A stretch of DNA of 64,000 nucleotides from Oscillospiraceae bacterium (GTDB lineage: Bacteria > Bacillota > Clostridia > Oscillospirales > CAG-272), in assembly GCA_015064245.1 (NCBI GenBank), contig SVSQ01000001.1:11433-75432 (forward strand). Direction: 5' to 3'. Position numbers and translations under genes: made by a program. Shown here in pieces: positions 8,026-46,226 of the stretch. The notes beneath the pieces are model-generated. The model was given only the letters and a program-made list of their open reading frames with translations, was not told where the DNA came from and did no database searches. Numbering within the stretch: the first letter of the stretch is position 1; every line of letters begins with the position of its first letter.

Positions 8026-9240
8026 ATGCAAGCTTCTTTTTACTACATCTCCCGGGGAAAGCTCTTTTCCTTTTCCGACGGAAAGACCGAGGAGATCCAC
8101 TCGGGAGTTTTGAACACGTACATTTCAAAGGTGCGTGATTCCGCTCAACGAAACGAATGGAAATATACGGGCACCGGCGCGGAATTCATCGGAACGAAAC
8201 GCGAGGGCGCATCCCCCGAGGACTCGGTAAGCGCTGTCCGCTCGGCGATACACTGCTTCGGAGAACACGCAGGAGACATCATATACTCCATAAGCATAGA
8301 CGAAACAAACGGAATATACCGCAAAAGAACTGACGGAGATTCCGCGGAAGGCATCGTTCTTTGCACAGGAAACGGAGCGTACAGCGACTTCGATATACGC
8401 GGAAACCTTATGGCTGCTTCTGCGGCTTTCGCGGGAGAGAGCCATATAGGCGTTCTTGATATGACCACGCAGAATTTCACCACCTACACCGAAGGCAATT
8501 CGCGGGATACCTCTCCCGCGTGGGCGGCTTTTGATCCAAACAAGATATATTTCTGCTGTATGGGGCTTCCGATAAAGGAAGCCAAGGATCCGAATTACAA
8601 TGCGCCTCCTCGGAGCATAAGCCAGATCGTGAGCGAAATGTATGACGCGTCAACCGTTGTCCGCGGTCCATCTTCCATCTGTCTGCTCGATACGAGCCTC
8701 GGCACACTCGACGAGATACTTTCGGATGACCGTTATGACTTCACCCACCCGCAAAGCCTCGGAGACGGTTCGCTTTATTACATTCGTAAACCGTACCGTC
8801 AGAATTCCGACAAAAGAAGCTCCTTCGGCTGTCTTGCGGAGATCGCGCTGCTTCCGTTCAGACTGCTGGAAGCGCTGTTCGGATTTCTTAATGTTTTCTC
8901 AGCAAAGTATTCGGGAAAGACACTTTCTAAAAACGACGTAAAGCACCGCGATGAAAAACAGATGTATATAGACGGAAACCTGATAAACGCGGAAAAGGAG
9001 CTTCGCGCGAACGCTAAAAAAGGCGATAAAAATCCCGGCATCATACCGCGAAGCTGGGAGCTTCGACGTTTGGACAGCAGCGGAAACGACACCTTGATAA
9101 AACGCGGTGTTTCCGCCTTCAGAGTCAATGAGACGACGGGAGATATACTGCTCTCGAACGGCTCTCATATATTAAAGCTTGATAAAAACGGAAAAGAAGA
9201 AAAAATACTTTCGGCACCAAAGGTGACGTTTATAAAATAA
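8026..9240 (+). CDS. hypothetical protein, 404 aa (possibly beta-propeller-like)
   Basis: RBS gaaaggag lies 13 nt upstream of the ATG. The composition is protein-like and no signal peptide is visible. Repeated motifs of the type IYSISIDETNGIYRK / SLYYIRKP / HILKLDKNGKEE occur. I recognise no family. Confidence 0.6.
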   Translation: MQASFYYISRGKLFSFSDGKTEEIHSGVLNTYISKVRDSAQRNEWKYTGTGAEFIGTKREGASPEDSVSAVRSAIHCFGEHAGDIIYSISIDETNGIYRKRTDGDSAEGIVLCTGNGAYSDFDIRGNLMAASAAFAGESHIGVLDMTTQNFTTYTEGNSRDTSPAWAAFDPNKIYFCCMGLPIKEAKDPNYNAPPRSISQIVSEMYDASTVVRGPSSICLLDTSLGTLDEILSDDRYDFTHPQSLGDGSLYYIRKPYRQNSDKRSSFGCLAEIALLPFRLLEALFGFLNVFSAKYSGKTLSKNDVKHRDEKQMYIDGNLINAEKELRANAKKGDKNPGIIPRSWELRRLDSSGNDTLIKRGVSAFRVNETTGDILLSNGSHILKLDKNGKEEKILSAPKVTFIK

Positions 9241-9268
9241 ATACAAGTAAGAAAGGCAGAACAAAATT

Positions 9269-10120
9269 ATGGCAGATCTTTTTCCAAGAACCACAGTAGG
9301 CGGCGTATCGATGCCGCGAATGATCATGGGTATAAACTGGCTTCTCGGCTGGAGCCATACAGGCGCCGCCGCAGACGCGGGTATCAAAGAAAAATATCAG
9401 AAGCCCGAGGACTTTTTGCCGGTATTCAAGGCGTACCTTGACCGCGGAGTCGACGCGATCATGGGCCCTCTCAGCCGTAACGAGCTGGGACTTGCCGCCC
9501 TCAAGTACGCCGAGCAGAAGCTGGGTAAAAAGATCATACTTATCGACACACCCAGCCTCAACGTAGACGACACCCCCGAGGCGCGCCGCGAAGCAAAAGA
9601 GGCGATCAAGCGCAGTAAGGAAGCGGGAGCCACCTTCTCGCTGGTGTTCCACCAGTCTGCCGAGCAGCTGGTAAACAAGAATCTCCGTCAGATCCCCCGT
9701 CTTCCCGACTATCTCTATATGATGCGCGAGGAAGGACTTATCCCCGGACTTTCCGCCCACATGCCCGAGCTTGTTACGTACAGCGACGCAAACGGCTACG
9801 ACGTTGAGACCTACATACAGATATTCAACTGCATGGGCTTTTTGATGCAGGTTGAGATAGAATCCGTCGCGAGAATAATCCATAACGCAAAGAAGCCGGT
9901 CATGACGATCAAGCCTATGGCGGCAGGCAGATGCACTCCTTACGTCGGTCTGACCTTCAACTACAACGCTATCCGCGACTGCGATATGGTAACCGTCGGC
10001 GCAGGAAGCGCTCTTGAGGTGGAAGAGGACGTCGAGATCGCTCTCGCGGCTATCGAGCACCGTTTCCCCAATCTCGGCGCACGTTCCTCTCCCGTTAAGC
10101 AGGAGATCCTCGGTCACTGA
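9269..10120 (+). CDS. hypothetical protein, 283 aa
   Basis: RBS aagaaagg precedes the ATG. The composition is protein-like (MADLFPRTTVGGVSMPRMIMGINWLLGW..). The overlapping 360-aa minus-strand ORF looks like an antisense shadow. I recognise no family. Confidence 0.6.
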   Translation: MADLFPRTTVGGVSMPRMIMGINWLLGWSHTGAAADAGIKEKYQKPEDFLPVFKAYLDRGVDAIMGPLSRNELGLAALKYAEQKLGKKIILIDTPSLNVDDTPEARREAKEAIKRSKEAGATFSLVFHQSAEQLVNKNLRQIPRLPDYLYMMREEGLIPGLSAHMPELVTYSDANGYDVETYIQIFNCMGFLMQVEIESVARIIHNAKKPVMTIKPMAAGRCTPYVGLTFNYNAIRDCDMVTVGAGSALEVEEDVEIALAAIEHRFPNLGARSSPVKQEILGH

Positions 10121-10245
10121 CTTTCTTTGAAAATAAAAGTTTGATTGCCTTGCAATCCGCAAAGAAATTTCTGTAATATCAAATTGCGTAAAATTGTTTG
10201 CCTGAAGGCGCCCGCCTACCACAAAAAAGAAAGGACTGCTTAAAA

Positions 10246-10995
10246 ATGACTCCCTACGAATGGAATATGATAAGAAACAACTATTATCTCGGAATGAGAG
10301 ATACAGGCGCAAGCCGAAAGCTTACGGGAAACGTTGTAGTCATACACGTTCTCGTAAACGATATGATGAGCAACTGGATGTACCCTATCCACGTTTCCGA
10401 ATATCAGATGGCTGCGGCTCAGATGGAGATGACGTTCAGCAACGCATCCTATGGCAGTCCTCACCGTCCCTATATGCGTTCAGTATATCTGCAGATAAAC
10501 CTTCCCATGGTCGCCGATCAATCGGGAATGTGGATAAATTACGCCTTCGCAAGTCTGGGCTTTCCCAACGCCGCGGCTATGCAGTATTACTACGAGAGCA
10601 TGTATAACTGCGACGAAGCGCCCATAATCTTCGCCTTTAACCGTCCCATGCGTTCCTTCGCCTCCGCCAACAACGACCGAAGCTACTTCCGTCAGGACGA
10701 ATTTTCCGCAGTGTTCCGCCACACCTCTTACGCCTTCGAGTCGCGCGTACTGGTACACGAGCTTCTGCATCAATTCGGCGCTATAGATTATTATTATCCC
10801 CAGATTACCGTTTATGCCGCCCAGCGTTATTTCCCAAACAGCATAATGTATACAACGGGAAACGAGATCGACGATCTCACCCGCTATCTCATCGGCTGGA
10901 CGGACGAGCTTTCGGACAAAGCCGTAGCCTTTTTACGTGATACCATGAGCGTAAACGACGCGGTCATGGCTGAAGCGAGAATGAGGGGAGTTTAA
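10246..10995 (+). CDS. cytoplasmic metzincin-like zinc metallopeptidase (HExxHxxGxxD plus Met-turn)
   Basis: The track ORF (TTG at 10198) is trimmed to the ATG at 10246 (RBS gaaaggac). It has HELLHQFGAID, followed ~30 aa later by NSIMYT (Met-turn-like). No signal peptide is visible. Confidence 0.55.
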   Translation: MTPYEWNMIRNNYYLGMRDTGASRKLTGNVVVIHVLVNDMMSNWMYPIHVSEYQMAAAQMEMTFSNASYGSPHRPYMRSVYLQINLPMVADQSGMWINYAFASLGFPNAAAMQYYYESMYNCDEAPIIFAFNRPMRSFASANNDRSYFRQDEFSAVFRHTSYAFESRVLVHELLHQFGAIDYYYPQITVYAAQRYFPNSIMYTTGNEIDDLTRYLIGWTDELSDKAVAFLRDTMSVNDAVMAEARMRGV

Positions 10996-11079
10996 ATCGC
11001 TCGGAAATATGCGAACGATATTTTAAAAAACATAGTATTACATATCAGAAACAACTCTACGAAAGAGGAAACGTAAAAA

Positions 11080-12183
11080 ATGTCAACTTACTTAGGATTT
11101 CAGCCGACAAATGATCCTTTTTATTATTTTGTCAGTTATAACACCGAGGATGCTCACCGTGTGGGACCTATCGTCCAAGCTATGTCTCAATCCGGCATAA
11201 ATTTATGGTACGATCACGGAATTGAATACGGTGACTATTGGGAGATCACCATTTCCGAAAAAATCAAGAATTCGCAAGCTGTAATACTGTTTTTCACAAA
11301 AGGAATTCTGACGAAGACAAGCTCTTACGTTCAAAGGGAATATAAAATTGCAAAGATTTTTCACCGAAACGTTTATATCGTAATGCTTGACAGAATAAAA
11401 GAAGAAGAGATCCCGGTGGAAAAAGTTGCTTGGTGGGTTGAGATCACCGAGCAACAATGTATAAACGGATATGAATTCACAGATACCGCTGAACTGGCTG
11501 AAGAAATATCGAGTCCTCTTGGTATCCAAAATCAAACTCGCGATAAAAAAGATCACGAAACAACACAGGACAGTTACGAACCAACTGAGCAATACAGAAA
11601 CGCCGCTGAGCAAGGGGATGCTACTGCTCAATACAACCTCGGAAATTGCTACTACAACGGCAACGGCGTACCGCAGAATGATTCAGAAGCAGTTAATTGG
11701 TTCAGAAAAGCCGCTGAGCAAGGGCATGCAGATGCTCAATACAACCTCGGATATTGCTACTACGACGGTAAAGGCGTACCGCAGAATGATTCAGAAGCAG
11801 TTAATTGGTTCAGAAAAGCCGCCGAGCAGGGGCATGCAGAGGCTCAATACAAGCTCGGAGATTGCTACTACTACGGCGAAGGTATAACGCAGAATTATTC
11901 CGAAGCTATCAAATGGTACAAAAAAGCCGCTGAGCAGGGGGATGCCTCTGCTCAATACCACCTCGGAGATTGCTACTACTACGGCGATGGCGTAACGCAG
12001 GATCAGTCCGAAGCTATCAGATGGTACAAAAAAGCTGCTGAGCAAGGTCACATTGGTGCTCAATGTGAACTCGGAGATCATTACTACTTCAAGGATGATT
12101 TCGAAGCAGTTATGTGGTACATAAAAGCAGCCGAGCAAGGAAGCGAACATGCCAAGAATGCTCTGCATGAGCTTGGTTTTTAA
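11080..12183 (+). CDS. TIR-domain protein with C-terminal Sel1-like repeats (TIR-SLR)
   Basis: RBS aagagga precedes the ATG. The N-terminus YYFVSYNTEDAHRV..INLWYDHGIEYGDYW..SQAVILFFTKG..SSYVQREYKIA fits the TIR/TIR_2 pattern. About 5.5 repeats of 36 aa follow (AAEQGxAxAQYxLGxCYYxGxGVxQxxSEAxxWxxK), typical of Sel1. Confidence 0.8.
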   Translation: MSTYLGFQPTNDPFYYFVSYNTEDAHRVGPIVQAMSQSGINLWYDHGIEYGDYWEITISEKIKNSQAVILFFTKGILTKTSSYVQREYKIAKIFHRNVYIVMLDRIKEEEIPVEKVAWWVEITEQQCINGYEFTDTAELAEEISSPLGIQNQTRDKKDHETTQDSYEPTEQYRNAAEQGDATAQYNLGNCYYNGNGVPQNDSEAVNWFRKAAEQGHADAQYNLGYCYYDGKGVPQNDSEAVNWFRKAAEQGHAEAQYKLGDCYYYGEGITQNYSEAIKWYKKAAEQGDASAQYHLGDCYYYGDGVTQDQSEAIRWYKKAAEQGHIGAQCELGDHYYFKDDFEAVMWYIKAAEQGSEHAKNALHELGF

Positions 12184-12196
12184 TTAAAATAATATC

Positions 12197-12236
12197 AAAA
12201 AACGCTATCACGACCTAAGATCGTAATAGCGTTTTT
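12197..12236. terminator. bidirectional rho-independent terminator between convergent genes
   Basis: The sequence aaaaacgctatcacgacctaagatcgtaatagcgttttt has stem acgctat/atagcgt plus inner acga/tcgt. An A-run and a T-run flank it. Confidence 0.7.
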
Positions 12237-12237
12237 C

Positions 12238-12966
12238 TTATTTCAGAACAGTTTTCAGCGCCTCGGTGCACTTGCGGACGTTCACAATACCGACCTCAGC
12301 GTTTCCGAGAACAGAATCTGTCATAGCCCCGCAGACCTCAAACAGTTCGCGGTACTTTTCGTATTCCTCGGAGCCCGTCTGCCCGTGTTTTCTGAAGCTT
12401 ATCTTGTACTCCCGTCCCTCGTAGTCGATAATAGTCAGCGGGATAGGATCAACGAGACGGTTCGGAATATCAAGCAGCTCGTCGACGGCGTGAATGTACG
12501 TATTGCGGTTCAGCTTGACGCCCAGCAGAAGTATCGTTGCGTCCTCGTCGTAAAGCCTCGACCATACTCCGCCCACGGGGCAGGGAGAGGTCGCCTTTTC
12601 TTCGCCCTTGACGAATTCAGCCGCCCGCTTTCCGAACGCCGCTACCGAATGCGTCGGGTGCAACGATCGCACCCCGTCTTCGCGAAACGCCGCCACAGTC
12701 GGCAGAGCGCCGATGCAAGGAACGGTTTTTCTGACGTCATATACGGGCTGCGCCGCGCCGACGTTCGCCCATGTGTGAGTCGGAACGACGAAGAGTCCGT
12801 CGGAAAGATAGGACTTGAACGCGTCTATCAGACCGTCGCATCCGCCCTCAACTCCGCCGAGAGCGCGCATAGACGTATGGACCACCACCGTATCCGAGGG
12901 CGTAATTCCGTTATTTTTCAAAAATGTATGTATATCCTTGCAAGTTATCATTTCACAACCTCTCAT
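12238..12966 (-). CDS. AAC(3)-family (YokD-like) aminoglycoside N3-acetyltransferase homologue
   Basis: VVVHTSMRALGGVEGG, LFVVPTHT, HPTHSVAAFG and NTYIHAVDE blocks fit the Antibiotic_NAT family. The ATG at 12966 overlaps the upstream stop (ATGA). An alternative start is at 12951. Confidence 0.75.
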   Translation of the reverse strand: MRGCEMITCKDIHTFLKNNGITPSDTVVVHTSMRALGGVEGGCDGLIDAFKSYLSDGLFVVPTHTWANVGAAQPVYDVRKTVPCIGALPTVAAFREDGVRSLHPTHSVAAFGKRAAEFVKGEEKATSPCPVGGVWSRLYDEDATILLLGVKLNRNTYIHAVDELLDIPNRLVDPIPLTIIDYEGREYKISFRKHGQTGSEEYEKYRELFEVCGAMTDSVLGNAEVGIVNVRKCTEALKTVLK

Positions 12967-14990
12967 TCATCAACTTCTTTTTGTATAAACAGATATCCCA
13001 TCCCATCCGTATATGAGACTCCTACCCGATATCCTTTGCAGACCGCAACGTAATAGAATACGTCCCCCTCGGTAGTACCGTGGGCTTTTTCAACGTAGCC
13101 TATACGCTTCAGCATATTGGCGTAATCGCGTACCGCTTCCCTTTCAGCGTAAAGAGCTACGGTGACTATAACTTCATTCTGAGTATATTTGATCTCACAA
13201 TCAGGTCTCGGAACCGCAGAAGTGAACTCATTCTCGGGCCAGTTCTCGTCGCTCGGTATAGGACTGCCGTCGAAATTCAGATGCGACCAGCTTCCGTCCG
13301 GATAGACCGTAAAAATCCTTCTGTTCTGATTTACATAGACCTCGGTCTTATCGGGCAAAACGTATACGACCGTTCCGTTATCCGCGGTATGGCTGATAGT
13401 TCCCTCCGGAAATTCCAGACCGTAACCGGGGTACTTACTGCCGCCGTGCTCCTCTCCCTCGTTGGGCGCGGTGTCTTCTTTTTCGGGGATCTTGACCTCA
13501 ATGATCGAACCCGCATCGCCGGGTAAGCCGCTTCTTCCGTTGGAGCTTGAGCCTACGCACCTGCAGTTTTTCTTGGTGGTCCTGTGCTCTCCGCCCTCAC
13601 CGCCTTGTCCGCGGTCTCCGCCTTCTCCGCCGATGGAACCGTCACCGCCTTGTCCGCCCTTGCCGCCCGCGCCGCCGTTTCCACCCGCGCCGCCGCAAGT
13701 ACATTTTTCGCCGCCGATCTGACAGCCGTTACCAATCACGACGTCGTCGCAGGAACCGCCCGAACCTCCGTTTCCGCCTGTACCACCCGTACCGCCCTTG
13801 CCGCCTATACCGTGTGAGGACGCGCTGAGAGTGAATACTCCTCCCGTCTCCTCGCTGACGTTCACTGTATATTCAAGCTGAGAGACGTCGCTGATACCGC
13901 CGTTTCCGCCGTTTCCGCCTTCGCCTCCTTCACCGCCCTTACCGCCGTTAGAGCCGTACGTCCAGCCTACTCCGAGAAGCCAGCTTCCTTTATTGGCGTC
14001 TCCGCCCCGTCCGCCGTTTCCGCCAGTACCGCCTATACCGCCTTCGCCGCCGTTGCCGCCAGTACCGGACGACATAGCCAGCTCGCCTTGATTTACGTTC
14101 AATACGCAGGAAACGTTAAGGGGCTCTCCGCCGTTTCCGCCTGTTCCTCCGTTACCGCCCTTTTTGCCGACAGTACCCGTACCTGCGCTTTTGACGGGCT
14201 TCATAATGGTGACCCAAATATCGCCCGTTCCGTTGTAACCCGTCTCACCCTCTGCTCCTGCGCCGCCTTTACCGCCTTTACCGCCGTTGCCTCCGACTAT
14301 GCGGAGAGCTCCGCTTCCGTTCTTATCTATCTGAGAAGCGATCGCGGCGCACGCGCCTGCGCTGCCGTTTCCGCCCGTAATTCCGCTGTTTCCCGCGGCG
14401 TCGACTCCGTCTTCGCCGTTACCGCCGAAGAGCTGCATCGCAGACGAGCATTCAAAGGTAACCGTCGAGCCCGGAGCGTTCAGAGCCGGAGCTCCCGACG
14501 CGCCGAAGACCGTATTCTCTCCGCCCTCGCTCTTTATGCAGAGCGTTCTGCCGACGGAGCAATAGACGGTTCCGTTCTTTGAGCTTCCGTGCAGGCTGAA
14601 GCTTTCAAACACGAGGGTAAGAGGAAATGAATCGTGATGCTCCACCACGATATTCATATCCGAATACAGAACTCCCTCAGTACCGCGGAAGACCACCTCG
14701 CTGACGTCACCCGCAACGGTGACGGTCTTACCGATATGATGCTCCGAGCTGCCCGAGAGGTCTATCACCACTCTTTGACCTGACTTGTTTTTGTAATCCA
14801 GAAGCTCCTCCACCGTGTAAAGATATACGGTATCGTCCTTTTCGGGCTCGGTCACGTCACCGCCGTCCTCAGATCCACCGATCTGATCCACCACGTCGTC
14901 TATGATACCGCCCATATCTTCACATGAACAACAAAACGTTATAACAAGCAGGCATATTATCATCGCCTTTAGCGATGTTATCAGTCTCAT
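12963..14990 (-). CDS. secreted (possibly lipid-anchored) glycine-rich GGNGG-repeat protein, 675 aa
   Basis: The track ORF is trimmed to the ATG at 14990 (RBS ggatggagg). The signal-like N-terminus is MRLITSLKAMIICLLVITFCCSC. The central ~290 aa is dominated by GGNGGxGGxGG strings. The N- and C-terminal domains are distinct and non-repetitive. Confidence 0.7.
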   Translation of the reverse strand: MRLITSLKAMIICLLVITFCCSCEDMGGIIDDVVDQIGGSEDGGDVTEPEKDDTVYLYTVEELLDYKNKSGQRVVIDLSGSSEHHIGKTVTVAGDVSEVVFRGTEGVLYSDMNIVVEHHDSFPLTLVFESFSLHGSSKNGTVYCSVGRTLCIKSEGGENTVFGASGAPALNAPGSTVTFECSSAMQLFGGNGEDGVDAAGNSGITGGNGSAGACAAIASQIDKNGSGALRIVGGNGGKGGKGGAGAEGETGYNGTGDIWVTIMKPVKSAGTGTVGKKGGNGGTGGNGGEPLNVSCVLNVNQGELAMSSGTGGNGGEGGIGGTGGNGGRGGDANKGSWLLGVGWTYGSNGGKGGEGGEGGNGGNGGISDVSQLEYTVNVSEETGGVFTLSASSHGIGGKGGTGGTGGNGGSGGSCDDVVIGNGCQIGGEKCTCGGAGGNGGAGGKGGQGGDGSIGGEGGDRGQGGEGGEHRTTKKNCRCVGSSSNGRSGLPGDAGSIIEVKIPEKEDTAPNEGEEHGGSKYPGYGLEFPEGTISHTADNGTVVYVLPDKTEVYVNQNRRIFTVYPDGSWSHLNFDGSPIPSDENWPENEFTSAVPRPDCEIKYTQNEVIVTVALYAEREAVRDYANMLKRIGYVEKAHGTTEGDVFYYVAVCKGYRVGVSYTDGMGYLFIQKEVDE

Positions 14991-15096
14991 AAAAACCTCC
15001 ATCCCGCTGTCCTTCGGACAGCTGCACAAATAGTTGACGAATTTACTGTATTTAAAGATAATCTCGATCTAACAAATTTCTGTATATACATATTAT

Positions 15097-16005: not shown

Positions 16006-16641
16006 TCACTTGACCGATGCAAGCACCTGATCCTTGATCTGGATCATTCCGAGAGGCGTCGGATGACCGTTCATCTTGTCGATTTTTTCAAGAACTATAG
16101 CCTTTCCGCCGACTCTTTCGCAAGAATTGCGTATTGCGTCCCTGACCTCGTTCTTTATATCGCAGTTGCATATACCGTAGATCTTCGCGTCGGGAAGCGT
16201 CTCGCGGAGCTTAGTGAAGAAATAGCCGACCGCAGGCAGGACGTTATAGAGATCTTTTCTCTCCCAACCCTCGCTCATCTCGTTTCCGAGGGGAGCGTTT
16301 GACCAGCTGTCGTTCGTTCCGCCGAAAACGAACACCGTATCGATCTTGTTCTCCGCGAAAAAGCCTTCCTGCGTCAGCTTTTCGAGTCTGTAAATAAATG
16401 AACTGCTTCCCGAAGTGTCGGAATTGTTGTAGCCCGTGTAACCGATGGTGGAGCCGCTCCAGCTGTCGTTGCGGACGAGGTTCGCTCCGCTCTCCTTCAC
16501 CATCAGTCCCCACCAGGACTGATCCGCGCTTTCAATATCGGGACCGCGTTCTCTTCTGCCCGAATAGTAGGCGGCGTAGCCCTGAGGGATACAGCCCGCA
16601 AAGGTGGAATAGCTGTCTCCGAATATCATTATATTTTTCAT
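16006..16641 (-). CDS. SGNH/GDSL-family hydrolase
   Basis: It has MIFGDSYS (block I), SGSTIG, and VFVFGGTNDSW blocks. Length is 211 aa. Confidence 0.7.
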   Translation of the reverse strand: MKNIMIFGDSYSTFAGCIPQGYAAYYSGRRERGPDIESADQSWWGLMVKESGANLVRNDSWSGSTIGYTGYNNSDTSGSSSFIYRLEKLTQEGFFAENKIDTVFVFGGTNDSWSNAPLGNEMSEGWERKDLYNVLPAVGYFFTKLRETLPDAKIYGICNCDIKNEVRDAIRNSCERVGGKAIVLEKIDKMNGHPTPLGMIQIKDQVLASVK

Positions 16642-16669
16642 AGTCGTTCACCTGACCTTTCTTACACTC

Positions 16670-19811: not shown

Positions 19812-21848
19812 TTACCTCCCTTGACTGGACTTGGGGTCCATAACGTCACGAAGCGCGTCTCCGATGATGTTGATGCAAATGGTGGTTATCATCAGGAATA
19901 TAGCGGGGAACAGCCACTGCCACCAGTAATTCTGGATAACGACGGAGTTACTGGAGCCGTTCAGCATATTACCCCAGGTAGGACGGGGGAGCGCTACGCC
20001 GAATCCCAAGTAAGAAAGCGAGGATTCCGTAAGCATACAGCTTGCAAAGTCCAGAGTCATAGAAACTATGATTATAGAAATAACGTTAGGAAGGATGTGC
20101 TTGAAAGCGATCTTCCATTCAACGACGCCCATAGCCTTTGCCGCGGTAACGAATTCCTTCTCACGCTCGGCGAGGACCTGACCTCTGACCAGACGTGCAA
20201 GTCCGGGCCATGACAGAACGCCGAGGATCACCATTATCAGAATTATTCTTGTGATCTCGGAAAGTCCCATAGTAGCGACTATCAGAGAAAGTATCAACGC
20301 AAATGGCATGAAGGGGATCGCCGAAACGACCTCAGCTATACGCATAAGCAGCATATCCAGCCATCCGCCGAAGTATCCGGACAGACATCCGACGATGATA
20401 CCGATGATGGAAGAAATGATAACAGCGATAGCGCCGACAGTCATTGTAAGACGCCCGCCGTTTACTATACGCTCCCAGATGTCTCTTCCGAAGTTATCCG
20501 TACCCATAAGGTAGCCCTTAAGTCCCCAGCTGTCGATAAGATCGCCTTCGGCATCTACCGCATACGTCTGGAAAGGTCCAACGAATATCTCTGAAACACC
20601 TGAAATACCGCTCGGAACCTTGGACTGCTTCAAAGTATTGCTACCCCAGGAGTAAACAGTTCCCTTATCCGTAAGAGCGACGTAATGCTTCTGACCGCCC
20701 ATAATATTTACGATCTTTTCGCCCTCAGCAAACTGAGGAACGATATTCTCGCCGTTCGCGCATACACCGGAAACAAGGACCGTACCGTCGTCAAGAACGA
20801 AGGCAGCAGAGCTTCCCGCAGCGCCTATATCAACGACCTTTCGGCCGTTCTCTTCGATATAATCACGGAGCTTTACACGGGTGCTTACGCCGTTCACGTC
20901 AACGTAAGTGTAATCGAAGCTCGACGTTCCGTCGGTGGAATAGGTTCCGTCCTTGAGAAGAAGAACGGCGTACTCCGTGGTGAACACCAGCTTTTCAACG
21001 TTATTATACTTTTTGACGGCTGCAAGGTTTGTAGCGCCTATACTGTGGTTACCCCAGATATAGAACTTACCGTCGTTCATAACGATACCGCTGACCTGCT
21101 TACCGCAGACTACCTGCTTGATCTGAGCGGGATCGAGATTTCCATTAAGCACGTCAGAAGGCGCGAAGGTATAAAGGAAACCGAGAGTTGCGTTGCCTTC
21201 GGGAATAGGACCGTACTGACCGTTCGCATTCTGTCCCCAGCCGTAGACCTTTCCGTCGTCACCGACAGCAATTATATGATCCGTACCTGCCGCAACGTGA
21301 ATGATATTAGCGTTCTTAACCTCTTCCGGGATCTTACTTACGTCGGAGAGCAATGTCTTTGTATGTCCCCAAACGTAGACGTTTCCGTCCTCGGAAAGAC
21401 CTACCGAGAAGGTAGAGTTTGAGGAGATAGTTTTGATCTGTCCCTTCATTTCCTTGGGAACTGACATCATATTAAGACCGGGAGCAACGTTCTGCTGAGA
21501 CGTTTCGATATACGAAAGGTCGATAGGATAGATGAACGGTCCCACCAGCATCAGAAGGAACATTGCAAAGAATACCACGAGAGCGCCTACAGCCAGCTTC
21601 TTTTGGAAGAACGCCTTGACTCTCTGCTTTCCGGGGCTTTCGATCTTTTCGACAGCGAAGATATCGTCATCCTTGTTTTCTTCGTCGTCACCGTTATTCA
21701 TTTCATTATAAAGGGCGTTAGCGCCGCCGAAAAAGGTTCTCTTGAACCAACGGCTCAGTGTAGCAAACGCGCCGGTTGTTTTCTTATTTTCAGAAGCTTT
21801 GGAGGTTACCGCGTCTTCTTTTTTGTTTTTATTCTTATTCTCTTCCAC
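19812..21848 (-). CDS. OppC/DppC-type ABC permease with RCC1-repeat domain inserted in the first extracytoplasmic loop
   Basis: The GTG start is at 21848 (RBS aaaggaggg). TM1 is LAVGALVVFFAMFLLMLVGPFIY. About 300 aa of repeats follow (GNVYVWGH, GKVYGWGQNANGQYG, GKFYIWGN, GTVYSWGSN). The canonical core comes next: GTDNFGRDIW..VGAIAVIISS..EFVTAAKAMG. Confidence 0.8.
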   Translation of the reverse strand: MEENKNKNKKEDAVTSKASENKKTTGAFATLSRWFKRTFFGGANALYNEMNNGDDEENKDDDIFAVEKIESPGKQRVKAFFQKKLAVGALVVFFAMFLLMLVGPFIYPIDLSYIETSQQNVAPGLNMMSVPKEMKGQIKTISSNSTFSVGLSEDGNVYVWGHTKTLLSDVSKIPEEVKNANIIHVAAGTDHIIAVGDDGKVYGWGQNANGQYGPIPEGNATLGFLYTFAPSDVLNGNLDPAQIKQVVCGKQVSGIVMNDGKFYIWGNHSIGATNLAAVKKYNNVEKLVFTTEYAVLLLKDGTYSTDGTSSFDYTYVDVNGVSTRVKLRDYIEENGRKVVDIGAAGSSAAFVLDDGTVLVSGVCANGENIVPQFAEGEKIVNIMGGQKHYVALTDKGTVYSWGSNTLKQSKVPSGISGVSEIFVGPFQTYAVDAEGDLIDSWGLKGYLMGTDNFGRDIWERIVNGGRLTMTVGAIAVIISSIIGIIVGCLSGYFGGWLDMLLMRIAEVVSAIPFMPFALILSLIVATMGLSEITRIILIMVILGVLSWPGLARLVRGQVLAEREKEFVTAAKAMGVVEWKIAFKHILPNVISIIIVSMTLDFASCMLTESSLSYLGFGVALPRPTWGNMLNGSSNSVVIQNYWWQWLFPAIFLMITTICINIIGDALRDVMDPKSSQGR

Positions 21849-29185: not shown

Positions 29186-29812
29186 TTACACCCCCATAGC
29201 GCCTTCCCAAAACCAAGAAAAACACACGATCACAGCCACTTCATATAACATAGCTGCCACCAGCATAGCGATATTTTTAACTTTTGATTCGTTATTTTTC
29301 AACGCCAAGAACTGAAAGAATACGCTTGTCGCGTTAATACCCGTCGCGGCAAAAGGATATAGGCAAAGCAGAGCTATTGAAATCCCCGAAAACACAACGT
29401 AAATACCATCCCAATTGCAAGGGACTTCCAGCAGTCCTGCGATCCACATAAAAACAGCGAACAAAGCCGCATACGCTAAATGCAGAAGCAATACGAAAAA
29501 AGCTATTTTTGTTTTGCTGACGTTTTTGGTGTTCGTTTTTACGCGGTATTTATAAATAGTTTTCTGAATTTTATCCACCAATGCAGTTTTATCTACAACT
29601 TTGATTTCTTCCAAAGGATTTTTCCAACCCTGCGCGGTGTCATCGGTAACAACGGTAATAAAATAGGCGTTCAAAGGCTCAATATACCCTACATCAATCA
29701 ACATTCCATCCCTATAATGAATCTCTATCATATCTTCATCGTCTTCTAAAATAAACGATATTTTCCCGTTCAATAAATCAAGCTTTTTATAATCGTCATG
29801 CCAAGAGGTCAT
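29186..29812 (-). CDS. hypothetical membrane protein (soluble ~95-aa N-domain plus ~4 TM helices)
   Basis: The ORF is trimmed to MTSWHDDYKK (ATG at 29812, RBS aaaggcgg). The C-terminal half is hydrophobic (IAFFVLLLHLAYAALFAVFMWIAGLL..). The region is AT-rich. I recognise no family. Confidence 0.55.
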   Translation of the reverse strand: MTSWHDDYKKLDLLNGKISFILEDDEDMIEIHYRDGMLIDVGYIEPLNAYFITVVTDDTAQGWKNPLEEIKVVDKTALVDKIQKTIYKYRVKTNTKNVSKTKIAFFVLLLHLAYAALFAVFMWIAGLLEVPCNWDGIYVVFSGISIALLCLYPFAATGINATSVFFQFLALKNNESKVKNIAMLVAAMLYEVAVIVCFSWFWEGAMGV

Positions 29813-29883
29813 TGTATCACCGCCTTTCAAACAAAATTTATAACTATCTCGCAATAAAACATTTAGAAATCTTCTCTGCGACC

Positions 29884-30123: not shown

Positions 30124-30198
30124 TGGAGGCGCCTGCGGGATTTGCACCCGCGAATAACGGTGTTGCAGACCGGGGCCTTACTGCTTGGCTAAGGCGCC
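30124..30198 (-). tRNA. tRNA-Cys (GCA), atypical D-loop/T-loop
   Basis: The acceptor is GGCGCCT/AGGCGCC, the discriminator is U and CCA is encoded. The anticodon loop is CTGCAAC. The T-arm is GCGGG-TGCAAAT-CCCGC (TGC instead of TTC). The D-loop is AAGCAGTAA (no GG). The anticodon stem has one mismatch. Confidence 0.7.
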
Positions 30199-30235
30199 TA
30201 ACAATTTGGCACACCGATGAGGTGTGCCATTTGTA

Positions 30236-30311
30236 TGGAGCGGATTACGGGGCTCGAACCCGCCACCTCGACCTTGGCAAGGTCGCGCTCTACCAAATGA
30301 GCTAAATCCGC
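30236..30311 (-). tRNA. tRNA-Gly (GCC)
   Basis: The sequence is GCGGATTTAGCTCATTTGGTAGAGCGCGACCTTGCCAAGGTCGAGGTGGCGGGTTCGAGCCCCGTAATCCGCTCCA. The anticodon loop is TTGCCAA. Confidence 0.9.
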
Positions 30312-30315
30312 AAAA

Positions 30316-30391
30316 TGGTGCCTCCGGTCGGAATTGAACCAACGACACGGGGATTTTCAGTCCCCTGCTCTACCAACTGAGCTACAGAGGC
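30316..30391 (-). tRNA. tRNA-Phe (GAA)
   Basis: The sequence is GCCTCTGTAGCTCAGTTGGTAGAGCAGGGGACTGAAAATCCCCGTGTCGTTGGTTCAATTCCGACCGGAGGCACCA. The anticodon loop is CTGAAAA. Confidence 0.9.
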
Positions 30392-30406
30392 TCATCACAA
30401 GAAAAA

Positions 30407-30483
30407 TGGCGACCCGGAAGGGACTCGAACCCTCGACCTCTAGCGTGACAGGCTAGCGTTCTAACCAACTGAACTACCGGGCC
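30407..30483 (-). tRNA. tRNA-Asp (GTC)
   Basis: The sequence is GGCCCGGTAGTTCAGTTGGTTAGAACGCTAGCCTGTCACGCTAGAGGTCGAGGGTTCGAGTCCCTTCCGGGTCGCCA. The anticodon loop is CTGTCAC. Confidence 0.9.
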
Positions 30484-30485
30484 AT

Positions 30486-30561
30486 TGGTGGAAACAATAG
30501 GGCTCGAACCTATGACCCTCTGCTTGTAAGGCAGATGCTCTCCCAGCTGAGCTATGCTTCC
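30486..30561 (-). tRNA. tRNA-Val (TAC)
   Basis: The sequence is GGAAGCATAGCTCAGCTGGGAGAGCATCTGCCTTACAAGCAGAGGGTCATAGGTTCGAGCCCTATTGTTTCCACCA. The anticodon loop is CTTACAA. Confidence 0.9.
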
Positions 30562-42950: not shown

Positions 42951-45900
42951 TTATGCGTTAGCCTTGGAATCATAGAAATCCATAGGCTCTACACTAATGG
43001 TCTGACCGTTGATCTCAACGTCAACTACGAATGTGTTGTAGTTGAGGATGAACCAGTGGCCGTTTTCGTACTCAACGTACACAACGGAACCGTCTGTAAT
43101 AGTTCTGTCGATTCTTGCAGCTTCTTTTGCCTCGTACTCTTCGAGCTTGATCTTATCCTGTCTGTCCTGATAGATCTTTCTGCACGCTTCGAGCACTGCA
43201 AGGTTACCCTGCTCTACGATCGCCGCTACCTCTTCGGGAGCCATGAACACGTAAAGTGTCGCGCTGTTATCGTAGATGTTGTACTGCTGGAGATAGATGT
43301 CTCTCTCCTCGCCTGTGTACTGGTTGCAGATTCTGTTGTAGTCGTTGATTCTTGCAGTCCAGTAGTCGATGAGCTTCTGCTCAACCGCCATATCTGCCAT
43401 CCATGCGATCTTAGCGTCACCCTTCAAGCTTTCAAGCTCAGAGTCTGTAAACTTACGTGTACAGTCGATGAAGAGGTGGTTTTCGATGCGGGATGTCTGA
43501 ACGTCTGCAAGAGCGTTGTTAAGCTTGTCATAAAGACCTTCGGAAACAACGTTGCCAGCCTCGTCGTACTGTGTAAGGAGGTGCTCCTTCCAGATATCGT
43601 AGGAGATAGCGTAGTACTTGGAGAGCCTGGGATCTTCCTTAAGAAGCTCAACGTTCTGATATGAGAGCATCATATAGAGTGTTGCGCCGTTTTCAAGGAT
43701 CTTAAGTGTTTCGTACTTGATATCGCCCGCCATGTTTGTGGGAGAACCTGCAAATACGATGTAGCCGTGGTAAACAAGTCCGAAGAATGGAACCGTCTCG
43801 GATGTGTTAAGGAAACGGCTGGAGTCCAGAGGAGCGTTGAGAACTACGGATGCGTAAGGTACTGCGTAAGCGTTACCGCAGTCAACGAGTATCTTGCCGT
43901 AGCTTTCGTTTACTGTGAACTGCTTGAGCATTTCTTCAGTAAACACCTTAGCGTCCTCACGGTTGTAAGGAGCGTCCTCGTCGAAGTCGGAGTTGAGGTC
44001 GGATCCGAGAGAGGAAAGAGAAACGTTCGTTGTCTTTCCGTCAAGGAGCTTAGTCATGGACTTATTGAACTTCGCGAAGAAGTCTCTGTAAACGCAGGGG
44101 GAGATACAGATCTTACCTGTTGTGGTAAATGTCTGGAGGACCGCGTCGTACTCTCTCTTTGTGATGTAACGGTTGTCGATCGTCTTGACTGCGTCTCTGT
44201 CATAAGAGAAGCCGTCGAAGAGTGAAACTGCCGTCATATACGCAAATTCGAATTCGGGGTAAACGTCGATACCGTGAGTAGCGGCGTAATCAAGGAAATC
44301 AAGGAATCCGGAGTTACCGCCGGTAACCTTCTCGAACTTTACCTTGGTGGGCATGGTGGGAACCATACCTTCGTTGATAAAGCCTGTGAGCTTGAAGTTG
44401 ATATTTGTGATGGGGGACTTAGCTGTGCCCAGCTCGTCGACCATCGCCTTGAGGTTTTCGAAGGATGTAAGAGCCTTCTTAACGGTTACAGGGATACTGA
44501 GGACCGTCTCGTCTGTTTCTGTAAGACCGAATACCTCAACGAAGAGCGGAATGTCCTTCTTGGTCTCCTCGATCTTTGTGATCTTTCCGGAAGTTTCCAG
44601 ATAGTCACGGTAAGCCTTAGCCATACCTACGTACGTAGGCTCGTAGTATGTTCTGTCGGCTCTTCTGTCCTTGGTATTATCGGGGTCTGTGAGCATTATG
44701 TAGTTGATTCTGAAGGAACCTGTGTACTTACGCTCGGAAACGACCGTATACTTTGTATTGGAACCGATGGAGATAGCCTCTGCAAGGTTGTAGGAGTCCT
44801 TAGGTCTGGGGTTGAAGGAGCAGAATACGGAGTTGTAGAAATGCTCACCCTTGTTCTTTGCGTTGGAACCACCGTGAGAGGATGTGATGTTCGTAAGAGC
44901 GTCACCCTCTGTTACGATAGCAACGTAACCGGAATCGTACTTCTTGATCTTGTTAGAGGGGATAAGGGAGCCTTCCTGAGGTGTGTTTGTGGAAACTACA
45001 CCGAAGACAGGCATACGGTAGACCTCCTGGTTTGCGTTACCGATCTCCTGGTAAGCGTAGTCCTGACCGTAGACCTTACCGCTGAGGTCGAAGGTCTTGA
45101 ACGTATCCTCGAATCTGATCAGCGTACCGGAACCGTCGGGAATGAAGGTATAGCCGTTGTAATCGTTGATACCTGCGCCCATGTACTGAAGAACTTCAAT
45201 AGAAGAGAGCTGGTAAAGGGACTCATCGAAACGGAGACCGCTCGCGGGGAAACGAACCTGAACGCCGTTATCCGTAAGGTAGTACTCCAGCGCCATCTTG
45301 AAGTTAGCGGGAGCCTTATCCTTATTTGTGTAGCCTGTTTCTCTGTGGTCTTTGTCAAGCTCCTCGAAGGTGTACTTAGGACAATATGTCTTGATGTAAC
45401 CCTCAACGAGCTTGATCTCACGAGCCTTTGCGGACTCGTCGAAGACGTAGATAGGAGTTGTTCTTGTGATAGGATATGCTTCGTACATCTGTTCCTTGGA
45501 CTGATCTGCGACCTTCTCGGGATCCTTCAGAGTGTACCAAGCTGTAGTACGGATGTAAAGACGGTTTTCTACACCGCCGGGAAGATTTGCAAGGAGCTGA
45601 CCGATGATCATCTCTTCAAATCTTGCCTGTGTGATCTGTCTGGGAACAAGAGTTCTGGACTCTTCTTCACCGATGGAGTACTCAATACGCACACCGCCGC
45701 TCAGCTTCTTTACCTTGATCTGCTCAAGGAGAGCAGCGTCGGTGAAGGAGTTGTAATGCTTAACGACGTCGTTATCGAGATAGTAGATATAAACTTGGCT
45801 GAGAAGCTTTCTCTTGGTTACGGCAGCGATCTGGTTATCGGGGATCTCCGTGATATTGAAGGGGTTTGTGAAGAGGATGTCACCTGTTGTGATATCCTTT

Positions 45901-46226
45901 ACAGCAACCTCACCCGTGATCTTATCAACGTAGAGCTCGAAGTCGCCTTTTGTGTACTGGAGAGTCATAGCGGCGATTCTCTTAGCTTCGGTTGAGAAGT
46001 CGGGGTTTTCAATACCTGCTTCCTTTTCTGCCTCGGTGGGAACGAATTCCGGCTTCAGATAGTACGCCTCGTACAGCTCTGAGAACGGGCGGATCTGCTC
46101 TTCCTCTTCCTCTTCTGCTGCAAATACCGGCAGCATCGAGAGCGAAGCCAGGATTCCGACTATTGTGAGGAGCGCGAGTAAACCGGAAAGCGATCTTGTA
46201 AATATATTATGTGTACTTTTTCTCAT
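42951..46226 (-). CDS. 1091-aa secreted/anchored protein of unknown function (possibly DUF5696-type, glycosidase-like barrel)
   Basis: The signal anchor is LSGLLALLTIVGILASLSMLPVFA, then AEEEEEEQ. There are no further TM segments. RBS is aggaagga. The family label is from memory only. Confidence 0.6.
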   Translation of the reverse strand: MRKSTHNIFTRSLSGLLALLTIVGILASLSMLPVFAAEEEEEEQIRPFSELYEAYYLKPEFVPTEAEKEAGIENPDFSTEAKRIAAMTLQYTKGDFELYVDKITGEVAVKDITTGDILFTNPFNITEIPDNQIAAVTKRKLLSQVYIYYLDNDVVKHYNSFTDAALLEQIKVKKLSGGVRIEYSIGEEESRTLVPRQITQARFEEMIIGQLLANLPGGVENRLYIRTTAWYTLKDPEKVADQSKEQMYEAYPITRTTPIYVFDESAKAREIKLVEGYIKTYCPKYTFEELDKDHRETGYTNKDKAPANFKMALEYYLTDNGVQVRFPASGLRFDESLYQLSSIEVLQYMGAGINDYNGYTFIPDGSGTLIRFEDTFKTFDLSGKVYGQDYAYQEIGNANQEVYRMPVFGVVSTNTPQEGSLIPSNKIKKYDSGYVAIVTEGDALTNITSSHGGSNAKNKGEHFYNSVFCSFNPRPKDSYNLAEAISIGSNTKYTVVSERKYTGSFRINYIMLTDPDNTKDRRADRTYYEPTYVGMAKAYRDYLETSGKITKIEETKKDIPLFVEVFGLTETDETVLSIPVTVKKALTSFENLKAMVDELGTAKSPITNINFKLTGFINEGMVPTMPTKVKFEKVTGGNSGFLDFLDYAATHGIDVYPEFEFAYMTAVSLFDGFSYDRDAVKTIDNRYITKREYDAVLQTFTTTGKICISPCVYRDFFAKFNKSMTKLLDGKTTNVSLSSLGSDLNSDFDEDAPYNREDAKVFTEEMLKQFTVNESYGKILVDCGNAYAVPYASVVLNAPLDSSRFLNTSETVPFFGLVYHGYIVFAGSPTNMAGDIKYETLKILENGATLYMMLSYQNVELLKEDPRLSKYYAISYDIWKEHLLTQYDEAGNVVSEGLYDKLNNALADVQTSRIENHLFIDCTRKFTDSELESLKGDAKIAWMADMAVEQKLIDYWTARINDYNRICNQYTGEERDIYLQQYNIYDNSATLYVFMAPEEVAAIVEQGNLAVLEACRKIYQDRQDKIKLEEYEAKEAARIDRTITDGSVVYVEYENGHWFILNYNTFVVDVEINGQTISVEPMDFYDSKANA

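Follow-up and report, generated by a model that had tools for sequence, protein, structure and literature searches.

A TIR domain with NADase-type residues fused to a strain-variable Sel1 solenoid in gut Clostridia

The stretch analysed here, which we call the window, comprises 64,000 nucleotides of contig SVSQ01000001.1 from an Oscillospiraceae bacterium (assembly GCA_015064245.1). On its plus strand, at positions 11080..12183, lies a gene whose product joins an N-terminal TIR domain to C-terminal Sel1 repeats; it was taken from the list of open reading frames (ORFs) and, stop codon included, encodes 367 amino acids. A sequence-only reading of this DNA had proposed such a fusion, and both Pfam matches, to TIR_2 and to Sel1, indeed lie above their gathering thresholds. 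The motifs that it quoted, FVSYNTEDAHRV, LWYDHGIEYGDYW, AVILFFTKG and SSYVQREYKIA, are all found in the translation.

Public gene calls start the protein at Met35 (P0001, 333 aa), with loss of strand bA. The orthologue on a second contig of the same species, L001, is likewise called short, at 225 residues rather than 259; the stretch concerned is 11080-11181 in the window and 9167-9268 in L001. Residues 1-34 are conserved across the family (M1, L5, G6, F7, P9, F17, S19 and Y20), strand bA included, and a Shine-Dalgarno-like AAAGAGGA, read from the sequence at 11062..11069 (plus strand), precedes the ATG at 11080 by 10 nucleotides. For these two reasons the long start at 11080 is the correct one. 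N-terminal truncation may be systematic among database entries of the clade to which the protein belongs. A hydropathy scan of the 367-residue protein found neither a transmembrane helix nor a signal peptide, which places it in the cytoplasm.

The TIR domain (11080..11529, plus strand; aa 1-150) includes a clade-specific N-terminal extension, MSxYLGFxPT, at aa 1-15. Pfam TIR_2 (PF13676) matches aa 17-123 with 46.9 bits, the gathering score being 28. The sequence-only reading had assigned the N-terminal ~125 residues to a TIR domain: the identity was right and the extent too short, as the fold spans aa 1-150 in the AF2 model. In the single-sequence AF2 prediction of the full protein the TIR half has a predicted local distance difference test score (pLDDT) below 50. 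Modelled from a 37-sequence alignment, the TIR domain reaches a pLDDT of 93.9 and a predicted TM-score (pTM) of 0.89, with the topology bA16-19, aA22-37, bB, aB52-64, bC67-72, aC83-93, bD97-102, aD113-124, bE127-129 and aE136-147.

Searched with Foldseek against the PDB, this model finds AbTir with the NAD+ analogue 3AD as its best match (7uxu; TMq 0.70, TMt 0.78), followed by plant RPP1 and RPS4, Brucella BtpA, the SPARTA TIR-APAZ protein and SARM1. The top matches are TIR domains only. The Foldseek probability is 1.00 to 7uxu, 4lzp, 7dfv, 8isy, 9ugj and others, and 75 matches have E≤1e-3. The predicted fold is thus closest to the active filament form of AbTir and to other NADase TIRs. The BB-loop, W43-Y44-D45-x-G47-I-x-Y-G51, is highly conserved in the clade.

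In bacterial TIR domains, NADase activity depends on the Glu of a WxxxE motif in the C-helix, which is E208 in AbTir; AbTir also requires S140, D167 and W204 (PMC11374754). With AbTir numbered along the alignment, S140, D167, W204 and E208 map to S19, D45, Y83 and E87, respectively. E87, encoded by the GAA codon at 11338..11340 (plus strand), is the putative catalytic Glu of a Y83-x-x-x-E87 motif: it is invariant in alignments of 9, 28, 37, 116 and 145 family sequences. Among the 145 relatives, D45 likewise does not vary, and S19 is retained in more than 90%. The equivalent of AbTir R151 shows no clear conservation (G29 stands there, with R27 nearby). When 12 diverse TIRs are aligned by MAFFT with gaps allowed, E87 shares a column without variation with the catalytic Glu of AbTir, BtTir and Cat1, and its surroundings, S-Y-V-x-x-E-phi-x-x-A, fit the pattern [W/F/Y]xxxE-phi-xxA seen in TIR_2 proteins that are unrelated. 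From this conservation and motif logic we conclude that the predicted catalytic Glu is E87, with a Tyr in place of the motif Trp. The protein is probably an active NADase.

The C-terminal half is a solenoid of Sel1 repeats, which are TPR-like (11590..12180, plus strand; aa 171-367). By Pfam and AF2 it consists of four canonical 36-residue repeats, a shortened fifth and a C-terminal capping helix, some 12-13 helices in total. Pfam Sel1 (PF08238) scores 213.7 bits over five separate stretches, and the 36-residue register reads AAEQG...A.Y.LG.CYY.G.GV.Q. AF2 models helix pairs from aa 170 to 364 with a pLDDT of about 87-97. A hydrophilic linker, NQTRDKKDHETTQDSYEPTE, connects the two halves (11530..11589, plus strand; aa 151-170); it has no hydrophobic segment, and its pLDDT is below 50 in the full-length model.

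The repeats are also visible in the DNA. A repeat search found a tandem array at 11487..12134 (plus strand) with a period of 108 nucleotides (36 codons), in five overlapping 216-nucleotide copies of 65-100% identity; copies 2 and 3 are 88% identical. A 45-mer reported earlier to occur twice does so exactly twice, at 11668-11712 and 11776-11820, 108 nucleotides apart, and not at all in shuffled sequences.

Contig L001, from the ENA, allowed a comparison within the species: its flanks share ~98% nucleotide identity with the window and the neighbouring proteins are nearly identical. Its TIR slot contains two genes as against one in the window. Gene 1 encodes a TIR domain 98.7% identical to that of the window and lacks exactly 108 amino acids (324 nucleotides), that is, three Sel1 repeats, in frame. 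The natural alleles hold 5.5 repeats (window) and 2.5 repeats (L001), a difference of six helices. Gene 2, a paralogue (P0005), has a TIR domain 82.7% identical to that of the window and a Sel1 region only 63.5% identical. It follows from the exact three-repeat indel and the identities of P0005 that the repeat module changes through recombination between units and outpaces the TIR domain in divergence, and from the one gene versus two that paralogue number varies between strains. A metagenome scan for further alleles of this species gave only relatives at 75% identity or less, with no allele series beyond L001. A second strain-variable spot lies 4.5 kb from the TIR slot: L001 carries an extra insertion of ~1.45 kb (L001:15490-16923) encoding a 477-residue HTH_3 protein, absent at the corresponding window positions ~16637-16656.

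We propose that the protein may be a cytoplasmic, stand-alone, ligand-activated TIR NADase, probably defensive, with the Sel1 solenoid as its ligand-binding and autoinhibitory module; for this reading as a whole we estimate a probability of about 0.45. Its anti-phage function, taken separately, is equally tentative, at slightly less than even odds. The enzymatic activity, ligand, oligomerisation and defence role that we infer would fit together as follows. At rest, the TIR-Sel1 monomer would be inactive. Binding of a protein in the Sel1 groove, with a phage protein as the likeliest ligand, would relieve or cluster the TIR domains. TIR enzymes require self-association to form composite active sites; here the domains would self-associate through the conserved BB-loop. 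E87 would then catalyse the cleavage of NAD+, so that NAD+ would run out and growth would stop (abortive infection), or a product or nucleotide signal derived from ADP-ribose (ADPR) would form, or both. The Sel1 module would evolve fast, through recombination of the 108-nucleotide unit and gain or loss of paralogues, the TIR domain remaining constant. A receptor that has to keep pace with variable ligands would be expected to show just this pairing of fast-changing repeats and a constant TIR.

The protein belongs to a large family. Word-indexed searches with the TIR domain alone had suggested a tiny one, of 11 and then 51 proteins; this was a prefilter artefact and was rejected after an exhaustive HMMER scan of 1.84 billion representatives, in which 241 clusters passed E≤1e-30 and 754 passed E≤1e-10. 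With clusters defined at 50% identity, the clade counts at least 241 of them, and in nearly all it is residues 1-150 of the protein that match. By sequence it is a distinct clade of N-terminal TIRs, recognisable by the MSxYLGFxPT extension, in proteins of 130 to ~1300 residues. The sequence-only reading had called the gene an orphan; this does not hold at the level of the family, where the TIR clade is large and the TIR+Sel1 architecture recurs.

All 116 relatives scanned with Pfam match TIR_2. Their C-termini carry LRR_5 of the BspA type (14 members), LRR_8 (10), Sel1, TPR or DUF6273 (5 each), FtsK/SpoIIIE (4), MORN or FHA (3 each), and protein kinase or PP2C (2 each); many have no match. C-terminal modules are therefore interchangeable on a constant TIR domain. 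A transmembrane scan of 145 members found a helix directly after the TIR domain in 17 (~12%), around aa 172-196, followed by a long C-terminal region. These members (P0176, P0178, P0179, P0132 and others) are predicted to have a cytoplasmic TIR and an extracellular domain, an arrangement reminiscent of Toll-like receptors. At 13 of the 55 loci fetched there are two or more TIR ORFs, in tandem arrays with differing C-termini.

A broader proposal, which we regard as unlikely, would make the whole clade a family of pattern-recognition receptors in gut Clostridia, each a single chain that has no NTPase. A constant N-terminal TIR "warhead" with its MSxYLGFxPT extension would sit on interchangeable sensors (cytoplasmic Sel1, TPR, MORN, FHA or LRR modules or, in the ~12% of members above, an extracellular domain behind a transmembrane helix) and would diversify through tandem arrays and repeat-unit recombination. 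Specificity would reside in the number of Sel1 repeats and in their surface, and the output would in some genomes be read by adjacent RyR-domain proteins.

The distribution of the clade is narrow and patchy. Among 185,579 GTDB species representatives it occurs at 38 loci, all in metagenome-assembled genomes of uncultured Clostridia or Erysipelotrichales from the guts of ruminants or other herbivores, and the closest match to the TIR domain of the window is only 65% identical. A few relatives at ~75% identity occur in human-gut metagenomes. No relative was found in a pattern scan of IMG/VR, and a plasmid search gave only distant, generic TIR matches of 24-32% identity. INPHARED gave a single tblastn match, MT836178, which was rejected: this contig is flagged UNVERIFIED and carries bacterial housekeeping genes, and its TIR is C-terminal and of a different type.

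Confinement to gut bacteria, together with the structural likeness of the TIR domain to BtpA/TcpB, would also suit an offensive protein, either a Tcp-like effector directed against host Toll-like receptor signalling in the gut or a secreted inter-bacterial NADase toxin. One relative has an FtsK/SpoIIIE ATPase and small ORFs as neighbours, a setting that recalls a type VII-like locus, and FHA or FtsK domains occur in some members. We nevertheless consider this very improbable for the protein of the window: it lacks a signal peptide, a transmembrane helix and any delivery domain such as LXG or Rhs, no adjacent immunity-like gene is conserved, and no secretion system genes lie nearby. Its TIR domain is moreover N-terminal, whereas polymorphic toxins carry the toxin domain at the C-terminus.

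Returning to an intracellular, defensive NADase, we looked for partner genes. The sequence-only reading had noted the absence of a ThsA-like (SIR2 or SLOG), cyclase or nuclease partner, and none was found, either by PADLOC on 15 other window proteins or by Pfam on the neighbours. At 43 loci, the ORFs lying up to 6 kb from the TIR genes were compared all-versus-all by BLAST; this yielded no conserved partner, only generic ABC ATPases and lineage-specific synteny. With no conserved neighbour across more than 40 loci, the protein must act alone. Two side observations concern such neighbours. ORFs with a RyR domain (PF02026) adjoin or lie near clade TIR genes in four independent genomes (L019:886-1173, L020:20-1522, L035:14270-14548 and L052:9107-11464), and these proteins may be functional partners in some lineages. 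A conserved 118-residue ORF with no Pfam match overlaps the 3' end of the TIR-TPR gene P0122 (L002:7677-8033 and L003:1652-2008); it could be a small accessory gene.

The protein could instead be a signal producer in the manner of ThsB, in which it would answer ligand binding by making an ADPR nucleotide, cyclic or modified, and a gene located elsewhere in the genome would supply the effector that this nucleotide activates, rather than NAD+ depletion itself being the output. PADLOC does return weak ThsB-model matches (E 9e-4 and 1.4e-3), and the RyR-domain neighbours in the four genomes could be nucleotide-binding partners. In AbTir, W204 is needed to make 2'cADPR (PMC11374754); its replacement by Tyr here suggests a different product. 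BcTpr of Bacillus cereus makes an isomer of cyclic ADPR (cADPR) (preprint, bioRxiv 10.1101/2023.05.26.542521, not peer reviewed). However, effectors of the Thoeris type normally adjoin their TIR gene; the 64-kb window contains no ThsA, SLOG, SIR2, Macro or RyR gene, and no neighbour is conserved across the loci. We therefore find a ThsB-like producer quite unlikely.

Base composition sets the gene apart from its surroundings. The sequence-only reading had compared ~38% GC in the first 80 nucleotides with ~53% in a 60-nucleotide sample of the preceding gene, and our values agree (37.5%, and 51.7% for the last 60 nucleotides of the upstream gene). The GC content at third codon positions (GC3) of the whole gene is a stronger and fairer measure: at 42.7%, versus 60.0 ± 5.7% in 41 long ORFs of the window, it is the second lowest (z = -3.1). 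The TIR half deviates most (GC 39.1%, GC3 38.7%). The composition is thus atypical, as had been claimed; the foreign origin deduced from it is less secure, and this is one of several points, gathered in what follows, that weigh against a defensive NADase.

The low GC3 could stem from low expression instead of foreign origin. The neighbouring genes, encoding a GDSL lipase, an SDR, an M14-like peptidase, an AAC(3)-like acetyltransferase and an Opp transporter, do not form a defence island, and the window is core chromosome, with purL, purD, a Clp-type AAA+ ATPase and tRNAs; it also holds oligopeptidase F, a xanthine permease and a cluster of five tRNAs. PADLOC found no defence system among the five flanking and ten other large window proteins, the latter giving generic AAA+ matches on the Clp-type ATPase only. 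On the TIR protein itself, it gave only weak, generic TIR matches, those to ThsB and one to PDC-S66 (E 6e-5). Two relatives, at L002 and L003, also lie amid housekeeping genes. Variation in repeat number is typical of non-immune Sel1 and surface proteins as well.

Within the TIR domain, the ungapped registers of an HMMER profile-versus-PDB search and of hhalign set AbTir E208 over Q85 instead of E87. The hhalign confidence in this segment is low (~4/9), and the profile-profile alignment left the choice between E87 and Q85 undecided. Family members differ at position 85 (Q, R, E, K, Y), which rules out Q85 as the catalytic residue. Compared with the 367-residue protein, AbTir has a loop two residues shorter ahead of the C-helix and two extra residues after the Glu, which accounts for the slip in register. 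The placing of a Glu of SYVQREY at the catalytic position, made in the sequence-only reading, thus agrees with the family-wide invariance of E87 and with the MAFFT column, and disagrees with the HMMER and hhalign registers. The Trp of WxxxE is also replaced, by Tyr83: the W204A mutant of AbTir is inactive, the equivalent mutant of TcpC being active, however (PMC11374754).

The settings of other relatives are more varied. One locus (L004) has recombinase fragments and an HTH gene nearby; another (L053) an AAA_15/21 ATPase and a Schlafen-like helicase; L052 contains FtsK, RyR-domain proteins, DUF4062 and three TIR genes, and L055 three TIR genes, a 791-residue TPR protein and AAA_14. These four settings are variable, multi-TIR or mobile-looking, and suggestive in that respect. 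The sequence-only reading had held that its proposal would fall if homologues were never found in defence islands: at the window, L001, L002 and L003 they largely are not, and L004, L052, L053 and L055 look variable or mobile. Because the window, the syntenic contig and several relatives sit in housekeeping chromosome, the defence role is one that we infer.

This same setting lends itself to a non-immune explanation, in which the protein would have a housekeeping or regulatory role, with the TIR domain as a scaffold or as a regulated hydrolase of NAD+, NAD caps or nucleotides and Sel1 as an adaptor. Signalling proteins with Sel1 repeats as adaptors include ExoR, MotX, AlgK and PodJ, and the partial NCBIfam matches of the protein are all to regulatory Sel1 proteins. 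The gene keeps its place between housekeeping genes in two strains, relatives also lie among such genes, and a defence-island signature is missing. Such a role is nonetheless unlikely in our view, given the extensive swapping of C-terminal modules, the tandem paralogue arrays, the copy-number variation between strains and the atypical codon composition, as well as a distribution so patchy that the best match among the GTDB representatives is only 65% identical.

A stand-alone TIR NADase with a repeat sensor would not be without precedent. The sequence-only reading had found no known system layout to match the gene, a view now outdated: twelve TIR systems of E. coli have been validated, several of them single-protein, and among these the TIR+TPR protein TIR-II is anti-phage (PMC11350192). 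TIR-II, reported to be the most widespread of the new TIR systems, comprises TIR and TPR on one or two proteins, and its phage defence needs the TIR active site (PMC11350192). Like the 367-residue protein, it unites TIR and TPR-class repeats in one polypeptide with no obligatory partner, a likeness of architecture only. It differs in that ~30% of TIR-II systems include an ATPase, absent from the TIR-Sel1 locus, and in that TIR-II occurs in Proteobacteria and phages, whereas the TIR-Sel1 clade is limited to gut Clostridia, with none found in viral contigs.

BcTpr provides a second parallel, from Firmicutes. It has an N-terminal NAD+ glycohydrolase of ~190 residues and a C-terminal TPR of 12 helices, and the number of TPR helices tunes product formation (the preprint cited above). 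The combination of an NADase-type domain with helical repeats is shared with TIR-Sel1, and helix tuning is relevant to the six-helix difference between its alleles. BcTir/BcTpr is however a two-gene system, where the TPR protein is the enzyme and the separate TIR protein is not the NADase.

AbTir, BtTir and TcpB (BtpA) are the best matches in sequence and structure, and have in common with TIR-Sel1 the equivalents of S140, D167 and E208 and a [W/Y]xxxE C-helix. Identity is only ~15-20%; TIR-Sel1 has Tyr for Trp in the motif and a loop before the C-helix that is two residues longer, and the three proteins carry an N-terminal coiled-coil instead of C-terminal Sel1 and lack the MSxYLGFxPT extension.

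In Avs5, C-terminal TPR/Sel1 repeats are both sensor and autoinhibitor (PMC12931631). STAND/Avs proteins (Avs5, TIR-NLR) resemble TIR-Sel1 in the logic of an N-terminal NADase effector and a C-terminal helical-repeat sensor and autoinhibitor, the sensor being hypervariable; they possess a central P-loop STAND NTPase, in whose place TIR-Sel1 has only the ~20-residue linker. Thoeris shares a TIR protein with an intact catalytic Glu and a weak similarity of ThsB profile, but ThsB has no Sel1 repeats and the window has no ThsA of either the SIR2-SLOG or the Macro-TM type (PADLOC, 15 other proteins). The TIR effectors of CBASS, Pycsar and type III CRISPR (TIR-SAVED, TIR-STING, PycTIR and Cat1) carry a nucleotide-sensor domain where TIR-Sel1 has Sel1 only, and Pfam and PADLOC detected no cyclase or CRISPR genes in the window. 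With SPARTA (TIR-APAZ and short pAgo) only the TIR fold is in common, and no APAZ or pAgo was found at the locus. The protein thus lacks the defining features of Thoeris, CBASS, Pycsar, type III CRISPR, SPARTA and STAND/Avs. It is an uncharacterised protein among bacterial TIR NADase-type proteins fused to TPR-class repeats, whose architecture and likely logic are already known.

Several other features of the window were recorded. Downstream of the TIR-Sel1 gene, a terminator scan found on the minus strand a hairpin with a 19-bp stem and A and T runs on either side (12197..12237), in the gap where the TIR-Sel1 and AAC(3)-like genes converge; a T-rich tail, read from the sequence, is seen on the plus strand too. 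It is a probable bidirectional terminator common to both genes.

Upstream, three consecutive plus-strand ORFs at 8026-10995 (404, 283 and 242-265 aa) have no family assignment. The first shows a faint TolB beta-propeller match and the third an HELLH (HExxH) motif. This third ORF (10198-10995) had been called a protease in the sequence-only reading; the HExxH motif is there, with no Pfam, NCBIfam or PADLOC match, and the protease label is unverified. The three ORFs are conserved in L001 and do not lie beside the TIR genes of other genomes.

On the minus strand, the 688-residue ORF at 12963-15029 has a lipoprotein-like N-terminus (…LLVITFCCSCED), long Gly-rich GGNGG/GGxGG repeats and a local GC of up to ~60%; it has no Pfam, NCBIfam or PADLOC match and is conserved in L001. 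The 678-residue OppC-type ABC permease at 19812-21848 (minus strand) has an L001 orthologue with RCC1/WD40_RLD beta-propeller repeats between OppC_N and BPD_transp_1, an unusual architecture. The lowest-GC ORF of the window (38.6%, GC3 41.3%), at 29186-29854 on the minus strand, encodes 222 residues with no Pfam or PADLOC match; it lies in a low-GC stretch (28.5-30 kb) adjoining the five tRNA genes (30124-30561) and may be foreign DNA at a tRNA hotspot. Lastly, ARAGORN calls a 90-nucleotide tRNA-Arg(tct) at 45538-45627 (plus strand), antisense within a 1091-residue DUF5696 ORF (42951-46226, minus strand), probably a false positive.

To our knowledge, the phage-defence repertoire of uncultured rumen and hindgut Clostridia is almost unknown. 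If the protein were an active, ligand-gated NADase, single-protein defences made of TIR and repeats would extend from Proteobacteria to these bacteria. The clade is attractive for its modular sensors, tandem arrays and natural repeat-number alleles; a new principle is not in evidence, and concepts stay unchanged at present. The alleles with 5.5 and 2.5 Sel1 repeats on a near-identical TIR domain, together with the diverged tandem paralogue, offer a ready test of how repeats tune a TIR enzyme, and the clade-wide swapping of sensors on one TIR domain would be a compact model of TIR activation without a STAND NTPase.

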